The position numbers and the translations under genes were made by a program. Shown here piece after piece: positions 3,986 to 35,577 of a stretch of 64,000 bases of DNA; within the stretch, counting starts at the first letter, position 1, and each line of letters opens with the position of its first letter. The stretch spans positions 13,741 through 77,740 of the forward strand of contig CALQTN020000010.1 of assembly GCA_943333505.2 (NCBI GenBank). The letters are read 5' to 3'. Origin of the DNA: Asaia bogorensis. Lineage in GTDB: Bacteria > Pseudomonadota > Alphaproteobacteria > Acetobacterales > Acetobacteraceae. A model generated the notes under the pieces. It was not told the origin of the DNA, made no database searches, and was given only the letters and a program-made list of their open reading frames with translations.

Positions 3986-4082
3986 TCCAGGCTCCTGTCG
4001 GGGTGGGGTCACCGTTCCGCGCTAAAACTAGCAGATAGCAAGCGTGCCTGCTACTGGAGGGGCAATCTTGCTGGAGTTCCCA

Positions 4083-5213
4083 ATGAAGCTGCTTATTCCT
4101 GGCCCTGTCACCACCAGCCCCGAAGTGAAGGCGGCGATGGCGCAGGATTTTGCCCCTTGGGACAATGATTTCCGTTCGCTTTACGAGCAGGTGCGTACCC
4201 GTGTGCTGGCCATCGCCGGCGGCCAGGCTGCAACCCATACCGTGCTTGGCCTGCAGGGCTGCGGGCACTTCGCCGCCGAGGCTGCGCTCCGCACCTTCAT
4301 GGCGCCGGGCGACAAAATCCTGGTGCCGCTGGTTGGCGCCTATGCCGAGCGGATGGCGCGTCTGGCATCTGAAGCCGGGCGGCAGGTGGTGACGATCCCG
4401 GTTGATCAGCAACGCCCGTTGCAGGCCAAGATCATCGCCGACGCGCTGGCGGCCGATCCATCGATCAGCCATGTCGGCATGGTTTACAGCGAAACCGGCA
4501 CCGGGGTGATCCACGATCCCGCGCCGATCAGCGCGGTGGTGCAGGCTGCCGGAAAGCGGCTGATTGTGGACGCGGTGTCCGCCTTCGGGGCGTTGCCGAT
4601 GGATGTGTCGCAGCATCCCGCGCTCGATGTGGTGATCTTCACCTCGAACAAATGCTTGGAGGCGATGCCGGGGCTGAGCTTCGCCGTCGCCCGGATTGAC
4701 CGGCTACAAGCCTGCACGGGCAACGCCGGAAGCTGGTCGTTCGACTATGCCGATGTCTATGCCAATCTGTTGCGACCCAACAGCGCCGGGGTGTTCCGCT
4801 TCACCCCGCCGGCGCAGGTGGTGGCGTCCTTCAGCGTGGCGCTTGATCTGTTCGAACGCGATGGCGGGCAGCCGGCGCGGCTGGCACGTTATCAGGCCAA
4901 TAGATCGGCCTTGTATGACGGCATGATTGCCATCGGGCTGGAGCCCTGTCTGTCGCGCGCGCTACAAGGCCCTGTTATCGTCAACATCCACGCCCCAGAT
5001 GATGCAGCATGGGATTTGATGGATTTCGTCGACCGGCTCAAACAGCGCGGCTGGCTGATCAGCAATTTCTACAACACGCCGGAGCCCAGCTTCCGGGTCG
5101 GCTGCATCGGCGCCATCACACCTGACGACATGCGGGTGTTTTGCGCGGCGGTTGACTCTGTGCTGACCGAAATGGGTATTCGCAACCGATCCGCCCGCCA
5201 GATGGCGGCCTAA
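4083..5213 (+). CDS. Class V aminotransferase, 2-aminoethylphosphonate:pyruvate transaminase (PhnW)-like
   Basis: [30 protein letters not shown] parallels the PhnW N-terminus. PLP lysine context FTSNKCLE. Length of about 376 aa fits. Confidence 0.7.
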
Positions 5214-12420: not shown

Positions 12421-13011
12421 TCAGGCGCGGCGGCGGCGGAACAGGCCGAGCATGGACAGGCCGGCGCCGAACAAGGCCGGGGACGCGGGTTCGGGCACGC
12501 CGAAACTCTCGTTTTGGAGGCTGCCCGAAAGCAGATAATCGCAGCAACCACTGGCCCGCGCAGACGAGGTCCCGTCGAGCGCCAAAGTCGGCACATCTTC
12601 GTTAAATGTATGCACGCTCACCAGCCGGATATCGAGCTCACGGTTGCCGTAGATGGCAGCGCTGGCGGAATCAATCGTGAGATGAAAATGGGAACTTGAC
12701 CCGATACTAGAATTGAGAACCGCGCCCAAGCTCGTGTCCAGGAGCGGAATGGGTGTATCGCTAAAGTACTGTTGATATATTTTTGCGGACACAACGAGAC
12801 CAGTGACGGAGTCAGCCGAGAAACTCCCCGTAACGTGCCAAAATCCGCCAAAGTTCACATTCACCAGATCCCAGGTGACAACGGAAGCCTTGGCCGGTGT
12901 CGTTACGACAACGCCAGAAACCAAGGCCACCAAGATGGACATGGCGGAAAATGAGCGGATGACCACGCGCTTCATCGCGGACAAATTCCGTAGAAAGGAA
13001 CGATCAGACAT
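12421..13011 (-). CDS. PEP-CTERM sorting-domain secreted protein
   Basis: C-terminus VPEPASPALFGAGLSMLGLFRRRRA*. Signal peptide MKRVVIRSFSAMSILVALVSGVVVTTPAKA. ATG 13011 has GGAG 7 nt upstream (alternative ATG at 12975). Confidence 0.75.
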   Translation of the reverse strand: MSDRSFLRNLSAMKRVVIRSFSAMSILVALVSGVVVTTPAKASVVTWDLVNVNFGGFWHVTGSFSADSVTGLVVSAKIYQQYFSDTPIPLLDTSLGAVLNSSIGSSSHFHLTIDSASAAIYGNRELDIRLVSVHTFNEDVPTLALDGTSSARASGCCDYLLSGSLQNESFGVPEPASPALFGAGLSMLGLFRRRRA

Positions 13012-13509
13012 ATAGGAACTCCATTTGGCAAGCTTGGCATCTGCCCAGCTCGCTGATGACGTCGCACCAGCATGTTCCGTGCCACCTCCCGACAGACACA
13101 TATTGCAGACGGCAACGTAAATTAATCCAATACATTACCGAAATTCATATATTAATTATGTTTTTTCAGCCTCGAATTCGAAAATAAATTGTAAAATTTT
13201 CTGACAAATAGGTCGTGAAAATTTTTATTTCAAAATTATTTTTTCTTATTTATGTATTTTTTCATACAACACACCATCCCAAATGCTAACGGGGAGAGAC
13301 TTAACGCGAGATCAAAGGATACTAATCACGAATATATGGAACTGCGCCAATCTCACGCCAACATTTACCAACCCAAAATGTAAAATTATCCGACACATCA
13401 AGCCAGCGCCGCAATGGATTATGGGAGACGACAGCTGGCGCTGATAATTCACAATTGTGTGGGTCCGTCTGGCATGTTATGCTCAGGAGATATTTGCAGG
13501 AATTTTTTA
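13012..13509. promoter_or_regulatory. AT-rich divergent promoter/regulatory spacer between the PEP-CTERM gene and the BLUF-TetR gene
   Basis: Long A/T runs in an otherwise GC-rich window. A 17-bp direct repeat, tgtaaaattttctgaca (13190-13206) and tgtaaaattatccgaca (13379-13395), matches at 15/17. Recurrent gtRaaaatt motifs. Confidence 0.4.
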
Positions 13510-14532
13510 ATGTTGCGCAGCATCGTCTATGTCAGCCGCGTAGCGTCGTCTATGCCCAACCCCGCCTTGCTGCCTTTGGTCAGCAAGGCGCAGACCCGCA
13601 ATCGGTCCCTGTTAGTCACCGGACGCCTGGTCTATATCAACCGTCGTTTCGTTCAAGCAATCGAAGGTCCGCAAGATGGTGTCGCGCGGGTTTGGGCGGC
13701 CATTCAACGCGATCAGACCCATCAGAAACTTGTGTTGCTCAGCGATGAAAATGTGCCAAGCCGGCTGTTTCCGGGCTGGACGTTGGATGTTCGTACCGCC
13801 GGCGATCTATCGAAAGCCGAAGCGGACCGACTGGTCGAAATCATACGCCTGATCGATGGGACCGATAGCGACAATGCCGCGATCGGCGCCAAAATCCTCG
13901 ATATCCTCGCGGGGGTGAAGGTTGAATGGGCCTATGAAATCCTGCGCGTGCCGCCCAACCAGGCCCGCGCGCGCCTGACAGTGCAACGGATGTTGCGCTC
14001 CACCCGCCTGCTCCTGGGCCGCAACGACGATCAGAAACTCACACTTGAAGCGGTGGCTGAGGCAAGTAATATTTCTATACCAACAGCGTATCGTTATTTC
14101 ACTGCACCGCGGGATTTGCTGCGCATGGTGGTGCGACACGCCCAGGCGCGCCAAAGGCGACGTTTTCAAGTCGGATTAGAAACGGCAATGTTTGAAAACG
14201 AACGTGAACTGGCCAGCGTCGTCGCCGGGTTGCTGGTCGCCAACTTCGAGGCCAACAAGGGGGATGCAACCGAAATCAGAAAGCACCTGCACCACACCGA
14301 TCATTCCATCATGTTCGACGGGTTCGGACACCTTGCGGGCGATGTAATTGACGCGATGCGGCGTTGTGGCGCTGCAAGCAACGCGCCTGGGACGTGGGTT
14401 CGGATGCAGATGGCGTTGGCCGCAGTGTCAGCAGCGTGTGATGCCGGGATGGCCCCCGATGCATCGCCGCTGCCAACGGCCGAAATCCGCGCGACCCTTG
14501 CCGGCATTTTCAGCGCCGCACTGCACGGCTAG
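13510..14532 (+). CDS. BLUF (blue-light FAD sensor) domain fused to a TetR-family transcriptional regulator
   Basis: N-terminus MLRSIVYVS...TRNR...VTGRL...FVQAIEG...RDQTH...FPGWTL carries the BLUF Tyr/Asn/Gln/Trp set. Later LTLEAVAEASNISIPTAYRYFTAPRDLL is a TetR_N HTH, followed by about 170 aa of helical domain. Single uninterrupted ORF. Confidence 0.75.
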   Translation: MLRSIVYVSRVASSMPNPALLPLVSKAQTRNRSLLVTGRLVYINRRFVQAIEGPQDGVARVWAAIQRDQTHQKLVLLSDENVPSRLFPGWTLDVRTAGDLSKAEADRLVEIIRLIDGTDSDNAAIGAKILDILAGVKVEWAYEILRVPPNQARARLTVQRMLRSTRLLLGRNDDQKLTLEAVAEASNISIPTAYRYFTAPRDLLRMVVRHAQARQRRRFQVGLETAMFENERELASVVAGLLVANFEANKGDATEIRKHLHHTDHSIMFDGFGHLAGDVIDAMRRCGAASNAPGTWVRMQMALAAVSAACDAGMAPDASPLPTAEIRATLAGIFSAALHG

Positions 14533-14634
14533 AGCGTGATGAGCGTAGGTGGAATCACACGAAGGTCTAAATCACGCGACCAAACAAAGAGATAGATCAT
14601 GATGACCGCGCCTATCAGCGGTCATCATGATCTA
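14530..14634. mobile_element. MITE-like element, copy A (101 bp + TA/TA flanks)
   Basis: TA|gagcgtgatgagc...ggtcatcatgatc|TA. About 88-90% identical by eye to copy B (56573-56677) and homologous to copy C (38832-38935, inverted). The left TA plus the first G forms the TAG stop of the BLUF-TetR gene. Confidence 0.7.
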
Positions 14635-14657: not shown

Positions 14658-16043
14658 CTATAATAGCGGCAGCCTGATCGCCTCCCATCCCGACAACACT
14701 TCAACCGCCCGCCCAACCCGCAAGGTCGTGGCTTCATCGAACGCACGCCCAACAATTTGCAATCCCATCGGAAGACCGCCACTGGAAAGCCCGGTTGGCA
14801 CGCTCAGCGCCGGATGGCCGGTGACGTTGAACGGCATGGTCTGCATCGGCGCCGCGGACAGCATACCGGTGGCAGGGGCGTCGAAGCGCGGTGCCGGCAC
14901 CAGCGAGGACGCGGTCAGCAACACATCGTAATGTTGCAGAGACGCGTTAACGGCCGCCGTCAGTTCACGGCGCAGACGCAGCGCCTGGATCATGTCCGGG
15001 CCAGTGACTGCCGCGCCGAGAATGAAACGTTCGAATGTCAGCTGGCCGAAATCCAGCGGTCGGGCGCGCATGTCGGCTTCGTGGATGGTAAAAGCCTCGC
15101 ACAGCATAATCACCCGGCCGCAGGTCGAGAATGCCGCATAGGGTGGCAGCTCGATATCCTCCACCACCGCGCCGGCCGCGCGCAGTGCCGCGGCAACGCG
15201 ATCAATCGCTGCCACCACTTCGGGATCGGAAATCGGGGCGGTGGCAAAGAACGCGCGTGGGATACCGATACGCAGACCGGCGACGCCCTTTTCCAGATCG
15301 ACGAGATAGTCCCCCACCGGCACATCCGCGCACGCAGGATCATGCTTGTCGTAGCCGGCAATAATCTGCAACGCCACCGCAGCGTCCGACACATTGCGGG
15401 TCAACGGTCCGCAATGATCAAGCGTGGTCGATAGCGGGAAAACCCCGCGCCGGCTCACCCTTCCATAGGTCGGTTTCAGTCCAACGGTGCCGCAATAGGC
15501 GGCCGGACCGCGGATCGAGCCACCCGTATCCGACCCCATCGCCAGCCTGGTGATCCCGGCAGCGATTGCAGCACCCGATCCAGATGACGAACCGCCGGGG
15601 ATATGGTCCGGGTTCCACGGATTACGCGCCGGCGGGAACGGCAGATCGAAGCTCGGCCCGCCGAGGGCAAATTCATGGGTGGCGAGCTTGCCCAACAGCA
15701 CCCCACCACTTGCCGCGAGTTTCTCGGCGACGACGCTGTCAGCGACCGGCACGTTATCGACGCGCAACTTGGAATGGCAGGTCGTGCGGATGCCGGCGGT
15801 GTCGTAGATATCCTTCAGCGCGTAAGGCACACCGTGCAACGGGCCGCTATCGATGCCGGCCGCGCGTTCAGCGTCTGCCCGGGCCGCATCGGCGCGGGCA
15901 CGATCGGCAGTGACGGTGATGAAGGCGTTGATTTTCAGGTCGGTGGCCGCGATGCGGGCCAAGGCCGCCTCGGTGAGGGCCACGCTGGTGGTGGTGCCGG
16001 CGCGTAACGCCTTGGCGGCATCGAGGATGGAAAGTTCGGTCAT
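14658..16043 (-). CDS. Amidase signature (AS) family amidohydrolase, AtzE/GatA-like
   Basis: GGSSSGSGAAIAAG and GSDTGGSIRGPAAYCG motifs. Start MTELSILDAAKALRAG at 16043 overlaps the upstream small ORF stop as ATGA. Confidence 0.85.
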   Translation of the reverse strand: MTELSILDAAKALRAGTTTSVALTEAALARIAATDLKINAFITVTADRARADAARADAERAAGIDSGPLHGVPYALKDIYDTAGIRTTCHSKLRVDNVPVADSVVAEKLAASGGVLLGKLATHEFALGGPSFDLPFPPARNPWNPDHIPGGSSSGSGAAIAAGITRLAMGSDTGGSIRGPAAYCGTVGLKPTYGRVSRRGVFPLSTTLDHCGPLTRNVSDAAVALQIIAGYDKHDPACADVPVGDYLVDLEKGVAGLRIGIPRAFFATAPISDPEVVAAIDRVAAALRAAGAVVEDIELPPYAAFSTCGRVIMLCEAFTIHEADMRARPLDFGQLTFERFILGAAVTGPDMIQALRLRRELTAAVNASLQHYDVLLTASSLVPAPRFDAPATGMLSAAPMQTMPFNVTGHPALSVPTGLSSGGLPMGLQIVGRAFDEATTLRVGRAVEVLSGWEAIRLPLL

Positions 16044-16255
16044 GCGTGCGCTCCTGGCACCAGCATACGGAATATGTTCGACCATTCTGCGGTATGGTCG
16101 CGGCCCTGGTCACGCAGAAGCGCGAGTTGCGAGCGGAAATCGCTATAACCGAGCAGGATCGCCGGGATCCGTTCCTCAGGAATGGGAACGCCGGCACGGG
16201 CAGCGAGGGTACGAAATTCGGCCTCAAGCATGGCGTCTGAAAGCGGTTTGGGCAT
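16040..16255 (-). CDS. Small (71 aa) AtzG/GatC-like putative amidase partner subunit
   Basis: MPKPLSDAMLEAEFRTLAARAGVPIPEERIPAILLGYSDF... Size, position immediately upstream of an AS amidase and the 4-nt overlap mirror the atzG-atzE arrangement. The sequence match itself is only impressionistic. Confidence 0.4.
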   Translation of the reverse strand: MPKPLSDAMLEAEFRTLAARAGVPIPEERIPAILLGYSDFRSQLALLRDQGRDHTAEWSNIFRMLVPGAHA

Positions 16256-16802
16256 GATCTTCTGGTCCTGCACTGTTCGGGGGCAGACGATAGGCAGATG
16301 CAATCCCGATGGCAAGAATACTCGTAAAATAACTCTATGAGGTTGTTAAATTCATAATTTACCATTTTGGATAATAAAAATCGCCAATTTATTATTTATG
16401 GACATTTTATTTTTTCATCAATTCTTCAATATGAATTTCTTAACGGCACACCCTTTGCGCCGCATCCGGCAGCAACTGTTATGGAACCAAGTATGTCGTT
16501 CCTGCGAATTTCCCATCGAACAGGCCCGCTGCTCGAGGCCGCCGGAACGACCATCGGCGCAGTAAGTCACAGTCACTATTAGATCTTAATTAATATCGAA
16601 TTCCTCTGCGTCGGCGCAATGCATTGGTGGTGCGGCGAAGATGATCGAGGCCATCGACACAATCAGCCGCGCCCACGCCCCGGCCGGTTCAGCCAGCGTG
16701 GTGGTCAGCGACGGCTGGCCGAACAACCGCATCAACATCCCACTTTGCGCGGCTTGGGCGAATGTTTTGCTGTGGGGGGTTTTGAATAGAACCAATAGGT
16801 AA

Positions 16803-16945
16803 GGTTTTCTTTGTTTGAAAAAAATAAGCAAAAAACTTTACTACTTTGTTGCCGTTGGCGTGGGACCATCCGCAGACCCGAGCCAACGGCAACAATGGAT
16901 AGAAAGTTTTTTTGGTTCTTTTTGTTCACAAAAAGAACGGCTTCC
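16803..16945. repeat. Nested palindromic AT-rich element (outer inverted arms + perfect 14-bp inner hairpin)
   Basis: The outer arms 16803-16839 and 16906-16945 are inverted copies of each other. Inner stem ttgttgccgttggc (16846-16859) pairs with gccaacggcaacaa (16882-16895), with a 22-nt loop. Confidence 0.55.
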
Positions 16946-17463
16946 TTAAATCTTAAAGCCTGGTCGCTGTTGGTGCCAATCGCTGTCCTTCTGATAAGCA
17001 TCCCCCGCCTTCAACGCAGTAGCCTCCGCAAACGGCTTCGCCGCCAGCGACAAACTAATCGGCAACCCGTTCGGGTCGAACCCACACGGCACGCTCACCA
17101 CCGGCGGTCCGAGATAGTTGAACGGTCTGGTATTGCCGACCACCGCGGTTGACTTGGCCATCGCGTCGGGTGCCCCGGCATCGACGTCAGTTTCGGCGAG
17201 GGTTGCCAGGCAGACTTTGATGGTTGGGCAGGCGAGGACATGGACTTTGCTGAACAAGTCTTGGGCGAAGGCTTTCAGCACCGGGCGGCGACGGCGGCGC
17301 CCGATCCGCTCGACGATCCGCCGGTGATGTATGACAGCCGCCCTGAACCGTTTCCGAGGCTGCCGATGCCGGACGGGGTGGGGGTGTATCGGCGCAGGTA
17401 GTGACTGCCGTACGGGGGAACCCGGGTGTCAGGAAAATTTACAAACCGACAGGTCAGAATCAA
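16946..17463 (-). pseudogene. Amidase-signature family pseudogene (internal deletion + frameshift, N-terminus lost)
   Basis: ORF 17275-17463 retains ITGGSSSGSGAAVAA. ORF 16946-17281 retains the C-terminal PFNYLGPPVVSVPCGFDPNGLPISLSLAAKPFAEATALKAG. The catalytic GxDxGGSIR segment between them is absent. Confidence 0.6.
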
Positions 17464-17608
17464 GAAAATTTATTGCAAAATTAGGATATAATTGGAAATA
17501 TTGTTCTAAATATGGAGGTAAAATTGCATTTGGCATTGGTCTGATCATTGCCCAGGCTATTGGGCTGTCACCAGTTCAAGGATCACATATGCGTGCCGTC
17601 AGCCGATT

Positions 17609-18607
17609 TTATTCTGTTACAGAACCGCTGTCGCTGGGGTTTCTGGCCCTCGGGCCAGGGGCGATCGGGATTGTTCGCCGCCGCCGCACGCCGAGCAGAC
17701 CGGAAAAGCCGAGGGCCAGCACGCCAAGCGTTGCTGGTTCCGGCACCACCGCGTTCGGCAAGGACGCCAGATCCAGGCCGCCGGCGTTGAAATTGTTGTA
17801 GGGATTCAAGATGTTGGAAGCGACCTCGGTCCGGCCGAAGCCTGGCAGGGCGTAGGTGAAGATGTCATCGTAGCCGTCACCGTCCAGCGCGAATAATACG
17901 CCAGCCGTATCGGCACTGCCCGCCGCCAGTCCGGAATTATAGAGCAGTAAAGTATTCAACGTATCATTATCCGACGCGGTATCGACAAACGCCAGGGTCG
18001 CCACACCGGTGGATAGATCCAGCGTGTACAAACTCGGTCCGGCTGAAGCATCATAGACTGACAAATACGTCGTCCCATCCGCCATTTCGGCAAGATCGGT
18101 CGCGGGGAAGAAATTCATTGCGTTGCCGCCCGAGGTAAGTGCCACCTCGGAAATGATCGTGCCGTCCAGAGGGTCGATGCGCAGCAGCTTGTTGCCAACC
18201 GAATCGACCGCCCAGAGCCGGTTATAGCGATCGAACATGGCGCCGCGCAGGCTGCGGCTCGTGTAGGTTGTACCCAACAGATTGGCGACCGCTGTGGTAG
18301 CGTTGATGCCGATCAGGGTGGAGGTCGGGGCAGCGAAGGTGCCCCCCACCATGAAGCCGCGCAGGCCGTAAGTGGCGGATAATGCCAGGCCATCGGCATC
18401 GATCCCAACGCTGTCCACGGTCATCGCGCCGATCATCGTCGGCGTGACACCGCCAGTGTCGGAGAAGTTGAACAAATAGGCTGGTGCGAGGGTTGAAGGC
18501 CCGTTGTCGGAGGCTGATTTCAAACCGTAGATGATTTCGGCCTGAACTGGCGCAACAATGGCGCAGCAGGCGAGGAAAATCGCGGTCCTGAGGATCGAAT
18601 GCAACAT
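17609..18607 (-). CDS. PEP-CTERM sorting-domain secreted protein (with atypical 21-aa extension after the RRRR)
   Basis: Signal peptide MLHSILRTAIFLACCAIVAPVQA. C-terminal VPEPATLGVLALGFSGLLGVRRRR followed by TIPIAPGPRARNPSDSGSVTE*. Confidence 0.75.
   Translation of the reverse strand: MLHSILRTAIFLACCAIVAPVQAEIIYGLKSASDNGPSTLAPAYLFNFSDTGGVTPTMIGAMTVDSVGIDADGLALSATYGLRGFMVGGTFAAPTSTLIGINATTAVANLLGTTYTSRSLRGAMFDRYNRLWAVDSVGNKLLRIDPLDGTIISEVALTSGGNAMNFFPATDLAEMADGTTYLSVYDASAGPSLYTLDLSTGVATLAFVDTASDNDTLNTLLLYNSGLAAGSADTAGVLFALDGDGYDDIFTYALPGFGRTEVASNILNPYNNFNAGGLDLASLPNAVVPEPATLGVLALGFSGLLGVRRRRTIPIAPGPRARNPSDSGSVTE
17616..17687 (+). other. Second PEP-CTERM-type tail encoded antisense to the 3' extension of the gene above (remnant or mini-gene)
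   Basis: Plus-strand codons give VTEPLSLGFLALGPGAIGIVRRRR: 24 codons, mirror-symmetric to the minus-strand tail. No convincing start codon upstream. Confidence 0.3.
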
Positions 18608-35311: not shown

Positions 35312-35499
35312 GTTGATTTCTCCCTGGCCCAGGCGCGGGCCCTTGATTTTAGGGACTGTAGGGCGGAAATATTCGGCTTGGGAATAGAAATCTCGATCAA
35401 TGCACACCCCGCTCGCGGGAAGCCGCCAACCACGCGCGAATTTGCGTGTATTGACGGCCCTATCCCCCGCCGCTAGGACTTATGACGCCGGTCCGCCGG

Positions 35500-35577
35500 C
35501 CCTCGTGATTTGTCCGGCCGGATTGCGGCGAGGTGAAATAAGCGCGCTAAAGAGGCCAGCGGACAGTCATGTCCGCT
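35500..35577 (+). promoter_or_regulatory. Candidate SAM-II (SAM-alpha) riboswitch in the metZ leader, with adjacent 7-bp hairpin
   Basis: ccctCGTGATTTGtccGGCCGGATTGCGGCgaggtgaaataaGCGCGCTAAAGAGGCC resembles the GUGAUUUG...GGCUUGC...CGCUAAAG core I recall for alphaproteobacterial metA/metZ leaders. Hairpin gcggaca-gtca-tgtccgc at 35559-35576. Confidence 0.5.

Follow-up and report, generated by a model that had tools for sequence, protein, structure and literature searches.

All BLUF photoreceptors described in the searchable literature rely for their output on either an enzyme domain (EAL, cyclase) or a separate partner protein. The short BLUF proteins signal by binding such separate partners (PixE, Fur, AcoN), and where BLUF domains are known to control transcription they do so in trans, on separate repressors that belong to the PpsR (PAS-HTH), BluR (MerR-like) and Fur families. 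TetR-family proteins are mostly repressors that are released by an allosteric signal, and in synthetic biology few repressor scaffolds are used more widely than TetR.

YcgF-YcgE has been described as a photoreceptor-repressor pair (PMC4844311). In the 2014 census of LOV and BLUF proteins (PMC4844311, supplementary file 3), which covers 1705 bacterial BLUF proteins, a single entry is labelled 'BLUF+TETR': F3U4S4 / WP_002724946.1 from Rhodobacter sphaeroides WS8N, with a length of 174 aa. F3U4S4 is comparable with the protein described here by label and length only: it carries the same domain-pair label, but 174 aa are too short for a complete BLUF domain together with a complete TetR regulator. 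This entry is uncharacterised, and the searchable main texts do not mention it. The characterised BLUF outputs listed in the first-pass annotation included no fusion to a repressor. This agrees with our searches, which found no characterised BLUF protein with a built-in DNA-binding output in the literature searched and no solved structure of one in the PDB.

Here we describe a BLUF-TetR fusion from Asaia bogorensis, encoded in a window of 64,000 nucleotides (the whole stretch of DNA that was analysed). The single ORF and its domain assignments place photosensor and DNA-binding domain in one polypeptide. We consider it probable that this protein is a one-component blue-light-regulated transcription factor of the TetR type that represses in the dark and is released by light. 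The gene is accompanied by the following elements:

13510 to 14532, plus strand: monocistronic BLUF-TetR gene of 340 codons followed by a TAG stop (ORF translation).
13498 to 13501, plus strand: Shine-Dalgarno-like AGGA, 8 nt before ATG 13510, with the same AGGA and spacing in the orthologue L005.
14593 to 14634, no strand assigned: hairpin whose stem measures 17 bp, located where the BLUF-TetR and amidase genes converge, with a T-run on the minus strand only.

Translation of the plus strand yielded a 340-aa ORF at 13510-14532 without interruption, confirming the earlier claim that a single frame with no stop or frame change crosses both the BLUF and the TetR part. Every sequence string quoted in the first-pass annotation was recovered in this translation: MLRSIVYVS (residues 1-9), QTRNRS (28-33), VTGRL (36-40), RFVQAIEG (46-53), RDQTH (67-71), FPGWTL (87-92) and LTLEAVAEASNISIPTAYRYFTAPRDLL (177-204). 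The start at ATG 13510 is supported by the AGGA motif and its conservation in L005, is identical in public gene calls, and fits the AF2 model, in which β1 begins at residue 2. A longer in-frame ORF from ATG 13414 (372 aa) was ruled out because a TGA interrupts the extension in L005 and because AGGA precedes 13510 in both sequences.

The protein can be divided into five parts:

13513 to 13797, plus strand: BLUF core, residues 2-96, in the order β1 α1 β2 β3 α2 β4 β5 (Pfam, PDB alignments, AF2/DSSP, Foldseek).
13813 to 13908, plus strand: BLUF C-terminal capping helices α3 (residues 102-117) and α4 (122-133) (AF2 model, Foldseek).
13942 to 13971, plus strand: conserved arm LRVPPNQARA, residues 145-154, by which the BLUF cap is linked to TetR α1 (alignment conservation).
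13963 to 14097, plus strand: TetR N-terminal DNA-binding domain with α1 (152-170), α2 (179-185) and α3 (190-196) (TetR_N and PDB profile matches, AF2/Foldseek).
14107 to 14526, plus strand: TetR C-terminal regulatory and dimerisation domain, α4-α9, residues 200-339 (profile alignment, Foldseek).

The BLUF assignment is secure. The Pfam check proposed in the first-pass annotation gave 71.8 bits for PF04940 (E 5.2e-20; residues 3-92 against profile positions 2-91 of 92), above the gathering threshold of 25. Using phmmer, PDB chains of BlrB (2byc, 7e-11) and also of AppA, PixD, BlrP1 and PAC were matched, and in these alignments Y7, N31, Q49, W90 and L92 lie opposite AppA Y21, N45, Q63, W104 and M106. 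The score and the alignments bear out the signature residues that had been named from the sequence. Across the family the photoactive positions are well kept (Tyr in 33/36, Asn in 46/48, Gln in 43/48 and Trp in 38/48 members). The AF2 model shows the expected ferredoxin-like order of elements (DSSP; pLDDT 89-98 for residues 1-100), and its BLUF fold matches TePixD, BlrB, AppA, PAC and BlrP1 with a Foldseek probability of 1.00. The Leu that had been noticed at the AppA Met106 position is indeed there, as Leu92 (codon TTG). The β5 Met (AppA M106, PixD M93) is implicated in BLUF signal transmission; it is a typical residue of the family that lies outside the definition of the BLUF domain, and among the members of the BLUF-TetR family the position is occupied by M (29), L (8), A (5) or V (3). 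Because the relatives of 93.5% and 80% identity have Met, signal coupling in the Leu92 lineage could be altered. Judged by its residues, the BLUF domain looks photochemically competent and would be expected to bind flavin and to undergo a photocycle.

Between the BLUF and TetR parts the first-pass annotation had placed a linker of about 55 aa, which proved to be structured instead. Residues 102-133 form two confidently predicted helices that match the α3/α4 helices capping TePixD and BlrB. For the BLUF part, Foldseek returned 1x0p (E 4.5e-9, target-normalised TM 0.75) and 2byc (TM 0.76-0.81), with TePixD and BlrB alignments that span about 135-144 columns, that is, the cap as well as the core. 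Since these helices match the PixD/BlrB cap, the architecture is predicted to be that of a whole short-BLUF protein followed by a whole TetR regulator. The connection from the BLUF cap to the TetR part then comprises only about 7-18 residues (134-151), including a conserved LRxxPxQxRA arm in which P149 and R153 reach at least 90% conservation in the family alignment, stand-alone homologues included. The full-length AF2 model, with a pLDDT of 91.7 and a pTM of 0.84, indicates that the two domains adopt a defined relative arrangement.

For the TetR half, the description as a canonical TetR_N domain needs qualification. The TetR identity stood, on the family profile and the fold. The wording 'canonical' was overstated, because the single protein scores only 18.6 bits against TetR_N (PF00440; E 1.7e-3, residues 175-204), below the gathering threshold of 24; this sub-threshold match nevertheless falls at the expected place, and the assignment rests on family profile and fold. 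TetR_N is matched at E<=0.01 by 39 of 49 full-length relatives (best 1.1e-12). In the PDB, the family profile matches over 200 different TetR sequences of solved structure (best 1.2e-11), some alignments covering positions 145-340 and running end to end with 2oer, 5icj, Mce3R and EthR. Nine helices are predicted for residues 152-339, with a pLDDT of 90.6 for the AF2 model of residues 140-340, and Foldseek aligned this fold to EthR with a TM of 0.63-0.67 over about 190 columns; TetR-family regulators made up all 50 of the 50 matches listed. The predicted recognition helix α3 reads PTAYRYF, and its AYRYF motif is nearly invariant in the family. Profile and predicted nine-helix fold thus uphold the earlier statement that a complete TetR regulator follows the BLUF domain.

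How widespread is this architecture? An exhaustive HMMER scan found BLUF-TetR proteins with the same order and spacing in about 50 clusters at 50% identity. Such a scan was needed because word-indexed homologue searches, which returned 3 and 6 proteins only, badly under-report the family. Two scans of GTDB species-representative genomes found no relative. One relative bears the JGI name 'AcrR family transcriptional regulator'. A short BLUF gene next to a stand-alone TetR homologue was found in none of the loci L009-L016. The novelty attributed to the fusion holds in part: it is rare and apparently unstudied, but with about 50 clusters and one 2014 census entry it is not unique. Against the orthologue L005 (80% identity, dS 0.55) the whole gene has a dN/dS of 0.20, with 0.17-0.32 in each of four segments; the BLUF segment, at 0.19, is as low as the HTH segment. 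These ratios show purifying selection on all parts of the gene, running across the junction.

The first-pass annotation had also noted a divergent PEP-CTERM gene across an AT-rich spacer. Both were confirmed, and the region contains the following features:

12421 to 13011, minus strand: PEP-CTERM (exosortase-sorted) surface-protein gene, 196 aa, divergent; candidate regulated target.
13012 to 13509, no strand assigned: AT-rich divergent spacer of 498 bp, GC 0.40 with a minimum of 0.32, presumed to hold both promoters.
13190 to 13206, plus strand: copy 1 of the candidate operator, TGTAAAATTTTCTGACA; distance to the start codon of the PEP-CTERM gene 179 bp (repeat search).
13379 to 13395, plus strand: copy 2 of the candidate operator, TGTAAAATTATCCGACA; 115 bp before ATG 13510 (repeat search).
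17427 to 17443, minus strand: third candidate operator copy with 2 mismatches, bordering an amidase remnant and an AT-rich patch.
13403 to 13480, no strand assigned: conserved non-coding block, possibly the BLUF-TetR promoter region (L005 alignment, scan).

The PEP-CTERM protein scores 22 bits with PF07589 (gathering threshold 20.7) and 23.5 bits with TIGR02595 (cut-off 16). A 17-nt motif occurs three times in the window where 0.10 matches are expected. Both spacer copies are kept at 16/17 positions in L005, copy 1 within otherwise diverged DNA, and the motif is a weak palindrome with 5/8 symmetric pairs. A PpsR-type site was ruled out, as the PpsR consensus is TGT-N12-ACA whereas the motif reads TGT-N11-ACA. 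The conserved block contains a -10-like GATAAT at 13443-13448 (TATAAT in L005), is overlapped by a leftward promoter-like site at 13447-13418, and includes the palindrome CACAATTGTG at 13450-13459. This palindrome was set aside: it is only 10 bp long, about 0.5 such palindromes are expected by chance per 500 bp, and it is imperfect in L005. Rfam reports a SAM_alpha riboswitch in the window, a sign of alphaproteobacterial origin, and, at gathering thresholds, no match in the spacer. Upstream of distant family members no common motif was found beyond TTGACA-like hexamers, which are not usable as a shared operator because they are confounded with -35 boxes.

Gene neighbourhood was ruled out as a clue to the regulon. 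The PEP-CTERM neighbour is common only to the window and L005, and the neighbours differ in the relatives L001 (adenylosuccinate synthetase and a small secreted protein), L006 (Opp-type permeases), and L007 and L008 (AMP nucleosidase, pirin); the sole overlap with the window among these four is the pirin of L008, about 3 kb away. The suggested light control of a surface or biofilm trait is accordingly a lead only: the motif pair conserved in L005 speaks for it, the 498-bp length of the spacer and the unconserved neighbours against it. The targets of the BLUF-TetR protein are uncertain.

How might light be converted into a change in transcription? We propose that the TetR part dimerises via α8/α9 and binds its operator via the α2-α3 helix-turn-helix. 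In the dark the protein would occupy operators in the AT-rich spacer, for which the two copies of TGTAAAAWTWTCYGACA are candidates, and repress its own gene as well as the divergent PEP-CTERM gene. Blue light would trigger the Tyr7/Gln49/flavin hydrogen-bond switch; β5 and the α3/α4 cap would change in consequence, and the arm would relay this change to α1 and the DNA-binding domain. The HTH units would be brought out of register and repression relieved, so that the BLUF domain would take the role that a small-molecule inducer has for an ordinary TetR protein. The sign of the light response is, however, unconstrained, and a BLUF domain docked near the HTH fits light-activated binding equally well.

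The opposite sign is the strongest alternative, and we regard it as unlikely without being negligible. Here the BLUF domain and its cap would dock on the HTH in the dark and block DNA binding or the dimer geometry, and light would release them. Such a protein could be a light-dependent repressor or an activator, as activators are known among a minority of TetR-family proteins. In favour of this arrangement, only about 7-18 residues separate the BLUF part from α1, and because AF2 is confident in the inter-domain arrangement (pTM 0.84) the modelled BLUF domain must adjoin the HTH domain. A precedent for a protein that binds DNA only in the light is EL222 (PMC4844311). The sequence does not discriminate between the two signs. 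Allostery in TetR proteins usually means release from DNA on signal, and light-activated BluF likewise takes the repressor BluR off DNA; both weigh against light-activated binding.

We find it improbable that the BLUF domain lacks, or has lost, the function of a light switch and instead senses flavin, redox state or temperature or serves a structural role, with regulation by a ligand in the TetR pocket. Leu92 in place of the β5 Met, in contrast to the relatives of 93.5% and 80% identity, would agree with such a loss, as would the complete TetR C-terminal domain, which may still bind a small ligand. In addition, stand-alone TetR homologues of the same subfamily exist that have non-BLUF N-terminal extensions, and upstream of one of them (L014) a decayed or frameshifted BLUF remnant lies in another frame. 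Since such stand-alone homologues exist, the TetR part can work without BLUF. Yet the Tyr, Gln, Asn and Trp are all present and strongly conserved family-wide, and the BLUF segment is as constrained by its dN/dS as the HTH segment. Leu, Ala or Val occurs at the Met position in about one third of the members with the photoactive residues kept, which suggests that the position tolerates substitution.

That the single ORF is an artefact, such as a frameshift or mis-assembly joining a short BLUF gene to a TetR gene, is effectively refuted: both kinds of gene do occur on their own, but no supporting evidence was found. The identical 340-aa protein recurs in independent assemblies, where it is present on at least 24 contigs (55 index blocks), and also in the MAG GCA_947468385.1; about 50 diverged clusters share the collinear architecture, and the frame is intact with purifying selection across the junction. 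The fusion is a real single gene.

We favour a dark-repressing, light-released regulator. We propose more tentatively, as somewhat less than an even call, that it is the first BLUF protein with a direct DNA-binding output, a natural single-chain TetR repressor gated by blue light, that the BLUF module with its α3/α4 cap replaces the small-molecule inducer as allosteric input to the N-terminal arm and α1, and that a PEP-CTERM protein is under light control. If true, the BLUF hydrogen-bond switch would be shown to drive the well-understood allosteric machinery of TetR, and BLUF signal transmission would become testable with a simple readout, operator binding. The protein would offer a compact repressor controlled by blue light and working without added cofactor, with about 50 diverged natural variants to pick from. 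Non-phototrophic alphaproteobacteria would also gain a direct link between light and gene expression, which might extend to surface proteins that depend on exosortase. Modular shuffling of sensors and effectors is expected in bacteria, and the domain pair is already on record in databases and in one census table; the novelty lies in the unstudied mechanism and not in the concept.

Compared with known systems, residues 1-133 resemble the short BLUF proteins TePixD/Tll0078, SyPixD/Slr1694, BlrB and BlsA in combining a core with two capping helices. Their chain ends after the cap, whereas here the cap runs into a DNA-binding regulator, and the β5 Met is replaced by Leu. The second half is predicted to share with EthR, EthR2, KstR and DesT the nine-helix fold with an HTH and a C-terminal regulatory domain, and by sequence profile it is close to 3bni, Mce3R, UidR and 2oer (E to 1e-11), although the Foldseek alignments with solved TetR proteins show no more than 13-20% identity. 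Ordinary TetR proteins have at most a short N-terminal arm in place of the 150-residue photosensory module, and the TetR part forms a distinct subfamily marked by LRxxPxQxRA and AYRYF. Like EL222 and other LOV-HTH proteins, BLUF-TetR joins a flavin-based sensor of blue light to an HTH output within a single soluble chain (PMC4844311). The resemblance is one of analogy and not of membership: EL222 uses a LOV domain (PAS fold, Cys adduct) where BLUF-TetR has a BLUF domain (ferredoxin-like, hydrogen-bond switch), and its LuxR-type HTH dimerises on illumination, unlike TetR proteins, which are constitutive dimers. With AppA-PpsR, BluF(YcgF)-BluR(YcgE) and BlsA-Fur the protein would share the final outcome that BLUF photochemistry alters the occupancy of a repressor on DNA. 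In those systems sensor and repressor are separate proteins; in BLUF-TetR they are fused, and the repressor is of the TetR type.

The open reading frame at 13510-14532 (+) translates into 340 codons without interruption, and each sequence string quoted in the first-pass annotation lies in the translation where it was claimed. The same 340-aa protein, 100% identical, is found on at least 24 contigs, which come from independent metagenome assemblies and are indexed in 55 blocks, and in the MAG GCA_947468385.1, and its neighbourhood is constant at all occurrences. The orthologue P0002 (locus L005) is 80% identical, collinear and gap-free. Between the two genes dS was 0.55 and overall dN/dS 0.20, with values of 0.19 for BLUF, 0.32 for the cap helices (the C-terminal BLUF helices α3/α4), 0.17 for the HTH and 0.20 for the TetR C-domain. 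These ratios point to purifying selection on all parts, junction included, which together with the recurrence of the intact product upholds the claim of a single ORF. The start is placed at ATG 13510 by sequence comparison. An in-frame ATG upstream (13414) is ruled out: the corresponding extension in L005 reads MDYGN-stop, and an AGGA lies 8 nt 5' of 13510 in the window and L005 alike. The gene is monocistronic.

Hmmscan with Pfam PF04940 (BLUF), as had been proposed, matched residues 3-92 at E 5.2e-20, with 71.8 bits against a gathering score of 25. A phmmer search of all PDB chains found BlrB (7e-11) as well as AppA, TePixD, BlrP1, bacterial PACs, SyPixD and BlsA. In these alignments Tyr7, Asn31, Gln49 and Trp90 fall on AppA Tyr21, Asn45, Gln63 and Trp104 and Leu92 on AppA Met106, confirming both the BLUF signature and the Leu at the Met106 position that had been read from the sequence. 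The photo-active residues are widely kept in the family (Tyr 33/36, Asn 46/48, Gln 43/48, Trp 38/48), and the β5 position holds Met (29 members), Leu (8), Ala (5) or Val (3). Because relatives of 93.5% and 80% identity carry Met, Leu92 (codon TTG) is a recent one-base change. By HMM, fold and photo-active residues the protein is a BLUF family member that lacks the typical β5 Met.

The TetR_N domain had been called canonical, which does not hold for the window sequence by itself: it scored 18.6 bits at E 1.7e-3, where the gathering score is 24, and even its best phmmer matches to solved TetR proteins were marginal (e.g. UidR, 0.017). Family profile and fold nevertheless make it a TetR family member. 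TetR_N was detected at E≤0.01 in 39 of the 49 aligned full-length members (best 1.1e-12), all 49 of which have a Pfam BLUF match. The family-alignment profile matched BLUF structures in the PDB at ~1e-28 and more than 200 distinct TetR-family structures, with 3bni best (1.2e-11), followed by Mce3R, UidR, TtgR, MtrR and EthR. Several of the latter alignments run over profile positions 145-340, the entire length of a TetR protein. None of the PDB chains searched with this profile matched both halves; among them there is thus no solved structure of a BLUF-TetR protein.

A full-length AlphaFold2 model (66-sequence alignment; mean pLDDT 91.7, pTM 0.84) predicts the following elements, given by residue:

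BLUF core: β1 2-11, α1 17-33, β2 37-43, β3 46-53, α2 55-67, β4 71-82, β5 93-96
Cap helices: 102-117, 122-133; a short helix follows at 139-144
TetR part, nine helices: 152-170, 179-185, 190-196, 200-225, 231-251, 254-263, 269-285, 295-313, 323-339

In a Foldseek search of the PDB, the N-terminal part matched TePixD (E 4.5e-9, TM 0.75, ~143 columns) and BlrB (TM up to 0.81). As these alignments take in the BLUF core and both capping helices, what had been described as a linker of about 55 aa is instead the α3/α4 cap typical of short BLUF proteins. Residues 140-340, modelled separately (pLDDT 90.6), resembled EthR, EthR2, KstR, DesT, TtgR and others (TM 0.63-0.67, ~190 columns), and all 50 of the 50 Foldseek matches listed were TetR-family regulators, in line with the complete TetR part that had been proposed. 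Thus, in the models, a whole short-BLUF protein is fused to a whole TetR regulator by a short connecting segment with the conserved arm LRxxPxQxRA, in which conservation of P149 and R153 reaches 90% or more, stand-alone TetR homologues included.

The family was defined with a HMMER profile run exhaustively over 1.84 billion cluster representatives; a word-indexed homologue search returned only three proteins. HMMER gave a coherent group of proteins, 320-370 aa long, that align with the query over its full length. Re-scoring of the listed proteins with separate HMMs for the two parts found both, in like order and spacing, in 58 proteins, or ~50 clusters at 50% identity with same-cluster members collapsed. 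A further 21 of them had the TetR part only. One belongs to the window cluster as a fragment; the others are stand-alone homologues, mostly with non-BLUF N-terminal extensions of 30-117 aa that may be a different input module or a trace of BLUF loss. Stand-alone TetR members of this subfamily are found among P0045, P0055, P0068-P0079 and P0084-P0145 and at loci L009-L016. At L014 1169-2244 (Ga0335081_10111394) what remains of a BLUF domain (HMM positions 3-54, E 2e-4) sits in another frame directly 5' of a full TetR homologue, a fusion either decayed or frameshifted. The representative search also gave P0036, P0046, P0060 and P0073 and, as a second group, P0057-59, P0063, P0075, P0076 and P0083; among these are proteins with two or three BLUF-matching stretches (in P0060 a second BLUF is visible in the alignment) and very long BLUF proteins (700-1143 aa) with two matched stretches.

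The surroundings of the gene contain the following features:

13012-13509, divergent spacer, 498 bp, GC 0.40 (minimum 0.32; window average 0.63)
beyond the spacer, divergent gene for a 196-aa product ending in a PEP-CTERM sorting signal
13190, candidate operator copy 1, TGTAAAATTTTCTGACA, 17-nt motif, direct repeat in the spacer
13379, candidate operator copy 2, TGTAAAATTATCCGACA, 17-nt motif, direct repeat in the spacer
13403-13480, conserved non-coding block with a 10-bp palindrome and a -10-like GATAAT, which is TATAAT in L005
14593-14634, hairpin (near-perfect inverted repeat, stem of 17 bp) between the BLUF-TetR gene and its convergent amidase neighbour
14658-16085 (-), AtzE-like amidase, downstream of and convergent with the BLUF-TetR gene
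16040-16255, 71-aa ORF preceding the amidase
16946-17463 (-), amidase remnant near the intact amidase
17427-17443 (-), third motif copy, TGTAAATTTTCCTGACA, 2 mismatches, at the 5' edge of the remnant
17609-18607 (-), second PEP-CTERM protein, 332 aa (TIGR02595 24.7 bits, PF07589 25.1 bits)
35492-35571 (+), SAM_alpha (alphaproteobacterial SAM) riboswitch RF00521, 63.9 bits (gathering score 36), the sole Rfam match in the window

The divergent PEP-CTERM gene across an AT-rich spacer was verified (PF07589 22 bits against 20.7, TIGR02595 23.5 against 16). Each motif copy lies near one of the two divergent genes, and L005, which also has the start of the divergent gene, keeps both at equivalent places with 16/17 positions apiece, in a spacer otherwise too diverged for easy alignment. 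Allowing up to 3 mismatches, the degenerate motif is expected 0.10 times in the 64-kb window and occurs 3 times. We regard the twin motif and the 13403-13480 block as candidate operator and promoter elements. The third copy adjoins an AT-rich patch (17440-17530), with a weaker tandem-like copy, AAATTTTCTTGATTCTGAC, directly beside it. Two distant family members, L007 (~250-290) and L008 (~4080-4120), share the conserved element CTTG(C/T)CAAA-N-GAAATCCAGCAAA(G/A)(T/C)TTTGA ~30-60 nt 5' of the start codons; it is dissimilar to the window motif and may be their promoter or operator.

The hairpin is probably the amidase terminator, since a T-run follows it on the - strand only. At 335 bits the amidase does not reach the AtzE equivalog cut-off of 461. 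Within the remnant, the match of 16946-17281 is confined to the last ~100 residues, C-terminal, of amidases (E 1.6e-13), and 17275-17463 has a GGSSSGS signature and no family match. The second PEP-CTERM gene lies ~3 kb from the BLUF-TetR gene. GC is lowered (0.32-0.60) in 12500-14600 and 16100-17600, with 0.59 in the BLUF-TetR gene and 0.57 in the PEP-CTERM gene, which may indicate acquired or decaying DNA. Neighbours are unrelated in more distant family members, so synteny defines no regulon.

The first-pass observation is confirmed and its core reading, a BLUF sensor and a TetR regulator in one polypeptide, is supported; the protein is most likely a TetR-type regulator of the one-component kind, controlled by blue light. 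Its TetR part would dimerise and bind its operator through the conserved PTAYRYF recognition helix. β5 and the α3/α4 cap are named as BLUF elements that matter for signal propagation (2014 review, PMC4844311). The hydrogen-bond switch of Tyr7, Gln49 and the flavin would alter both, and because the short conserved arm ties the cap to α1 of the DNA-binding domain, a cap change would be expected to turn the HTH units relative to the operator and so shift the affinity for it. By analogy with inducer-released TetR proteins and BluF-BluR, a precedent for repressor release in light, the sign we favour is that of a dark repressor which light releases. By another analogy the sign may be opposite, with uncaging by light as in EL222. 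It is the conserved twin motif that leads us to guess, by default, at the regulator's own gene and the divergent PEP-CTERM gene as targets.

No main text found in the openly searchable literature describes a protein of BLUF-TetR or BLUF-HTH type. In a 2022 review on the control of bacterial gene expression by light, BLUF comes up only in the contexts of PAC, BlrP1 and PixD. A 2014 census counts 64% short and 34% EAL-linked BLUF proteins, and among the 1705 entries of its supplementary table are one 'BLUF+TETR' (R. sphaeroides WS8N, 174 aa) and one 'HTH-BLUF' (PMC4844311). As JGI also labels one relative 'AcrR family transcriptional regulator', the domain pair is already catalogued yet, as far as searchable, uncharacterised. 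With ~50 clusters the family is small. Both kinds of protein are known; what would be new is the direct DNA-binding output of a BLUF photoreceptor or, seen from the other side, the photosensory input of a TetR regulator. Its relevance to photoreceptor mechanism and optogenetics is tempered by the Met-to-Leu change in this lineage, an uncertain regulon and a function inferred from sequence and model. The closest BLUF relatives in logic, AppA-PpsR, BluF-BluR and BlsA-Fur, act on repressors in trans; the nearest functional analogue, the LOV-HTH protein EL222, is non-homologous.
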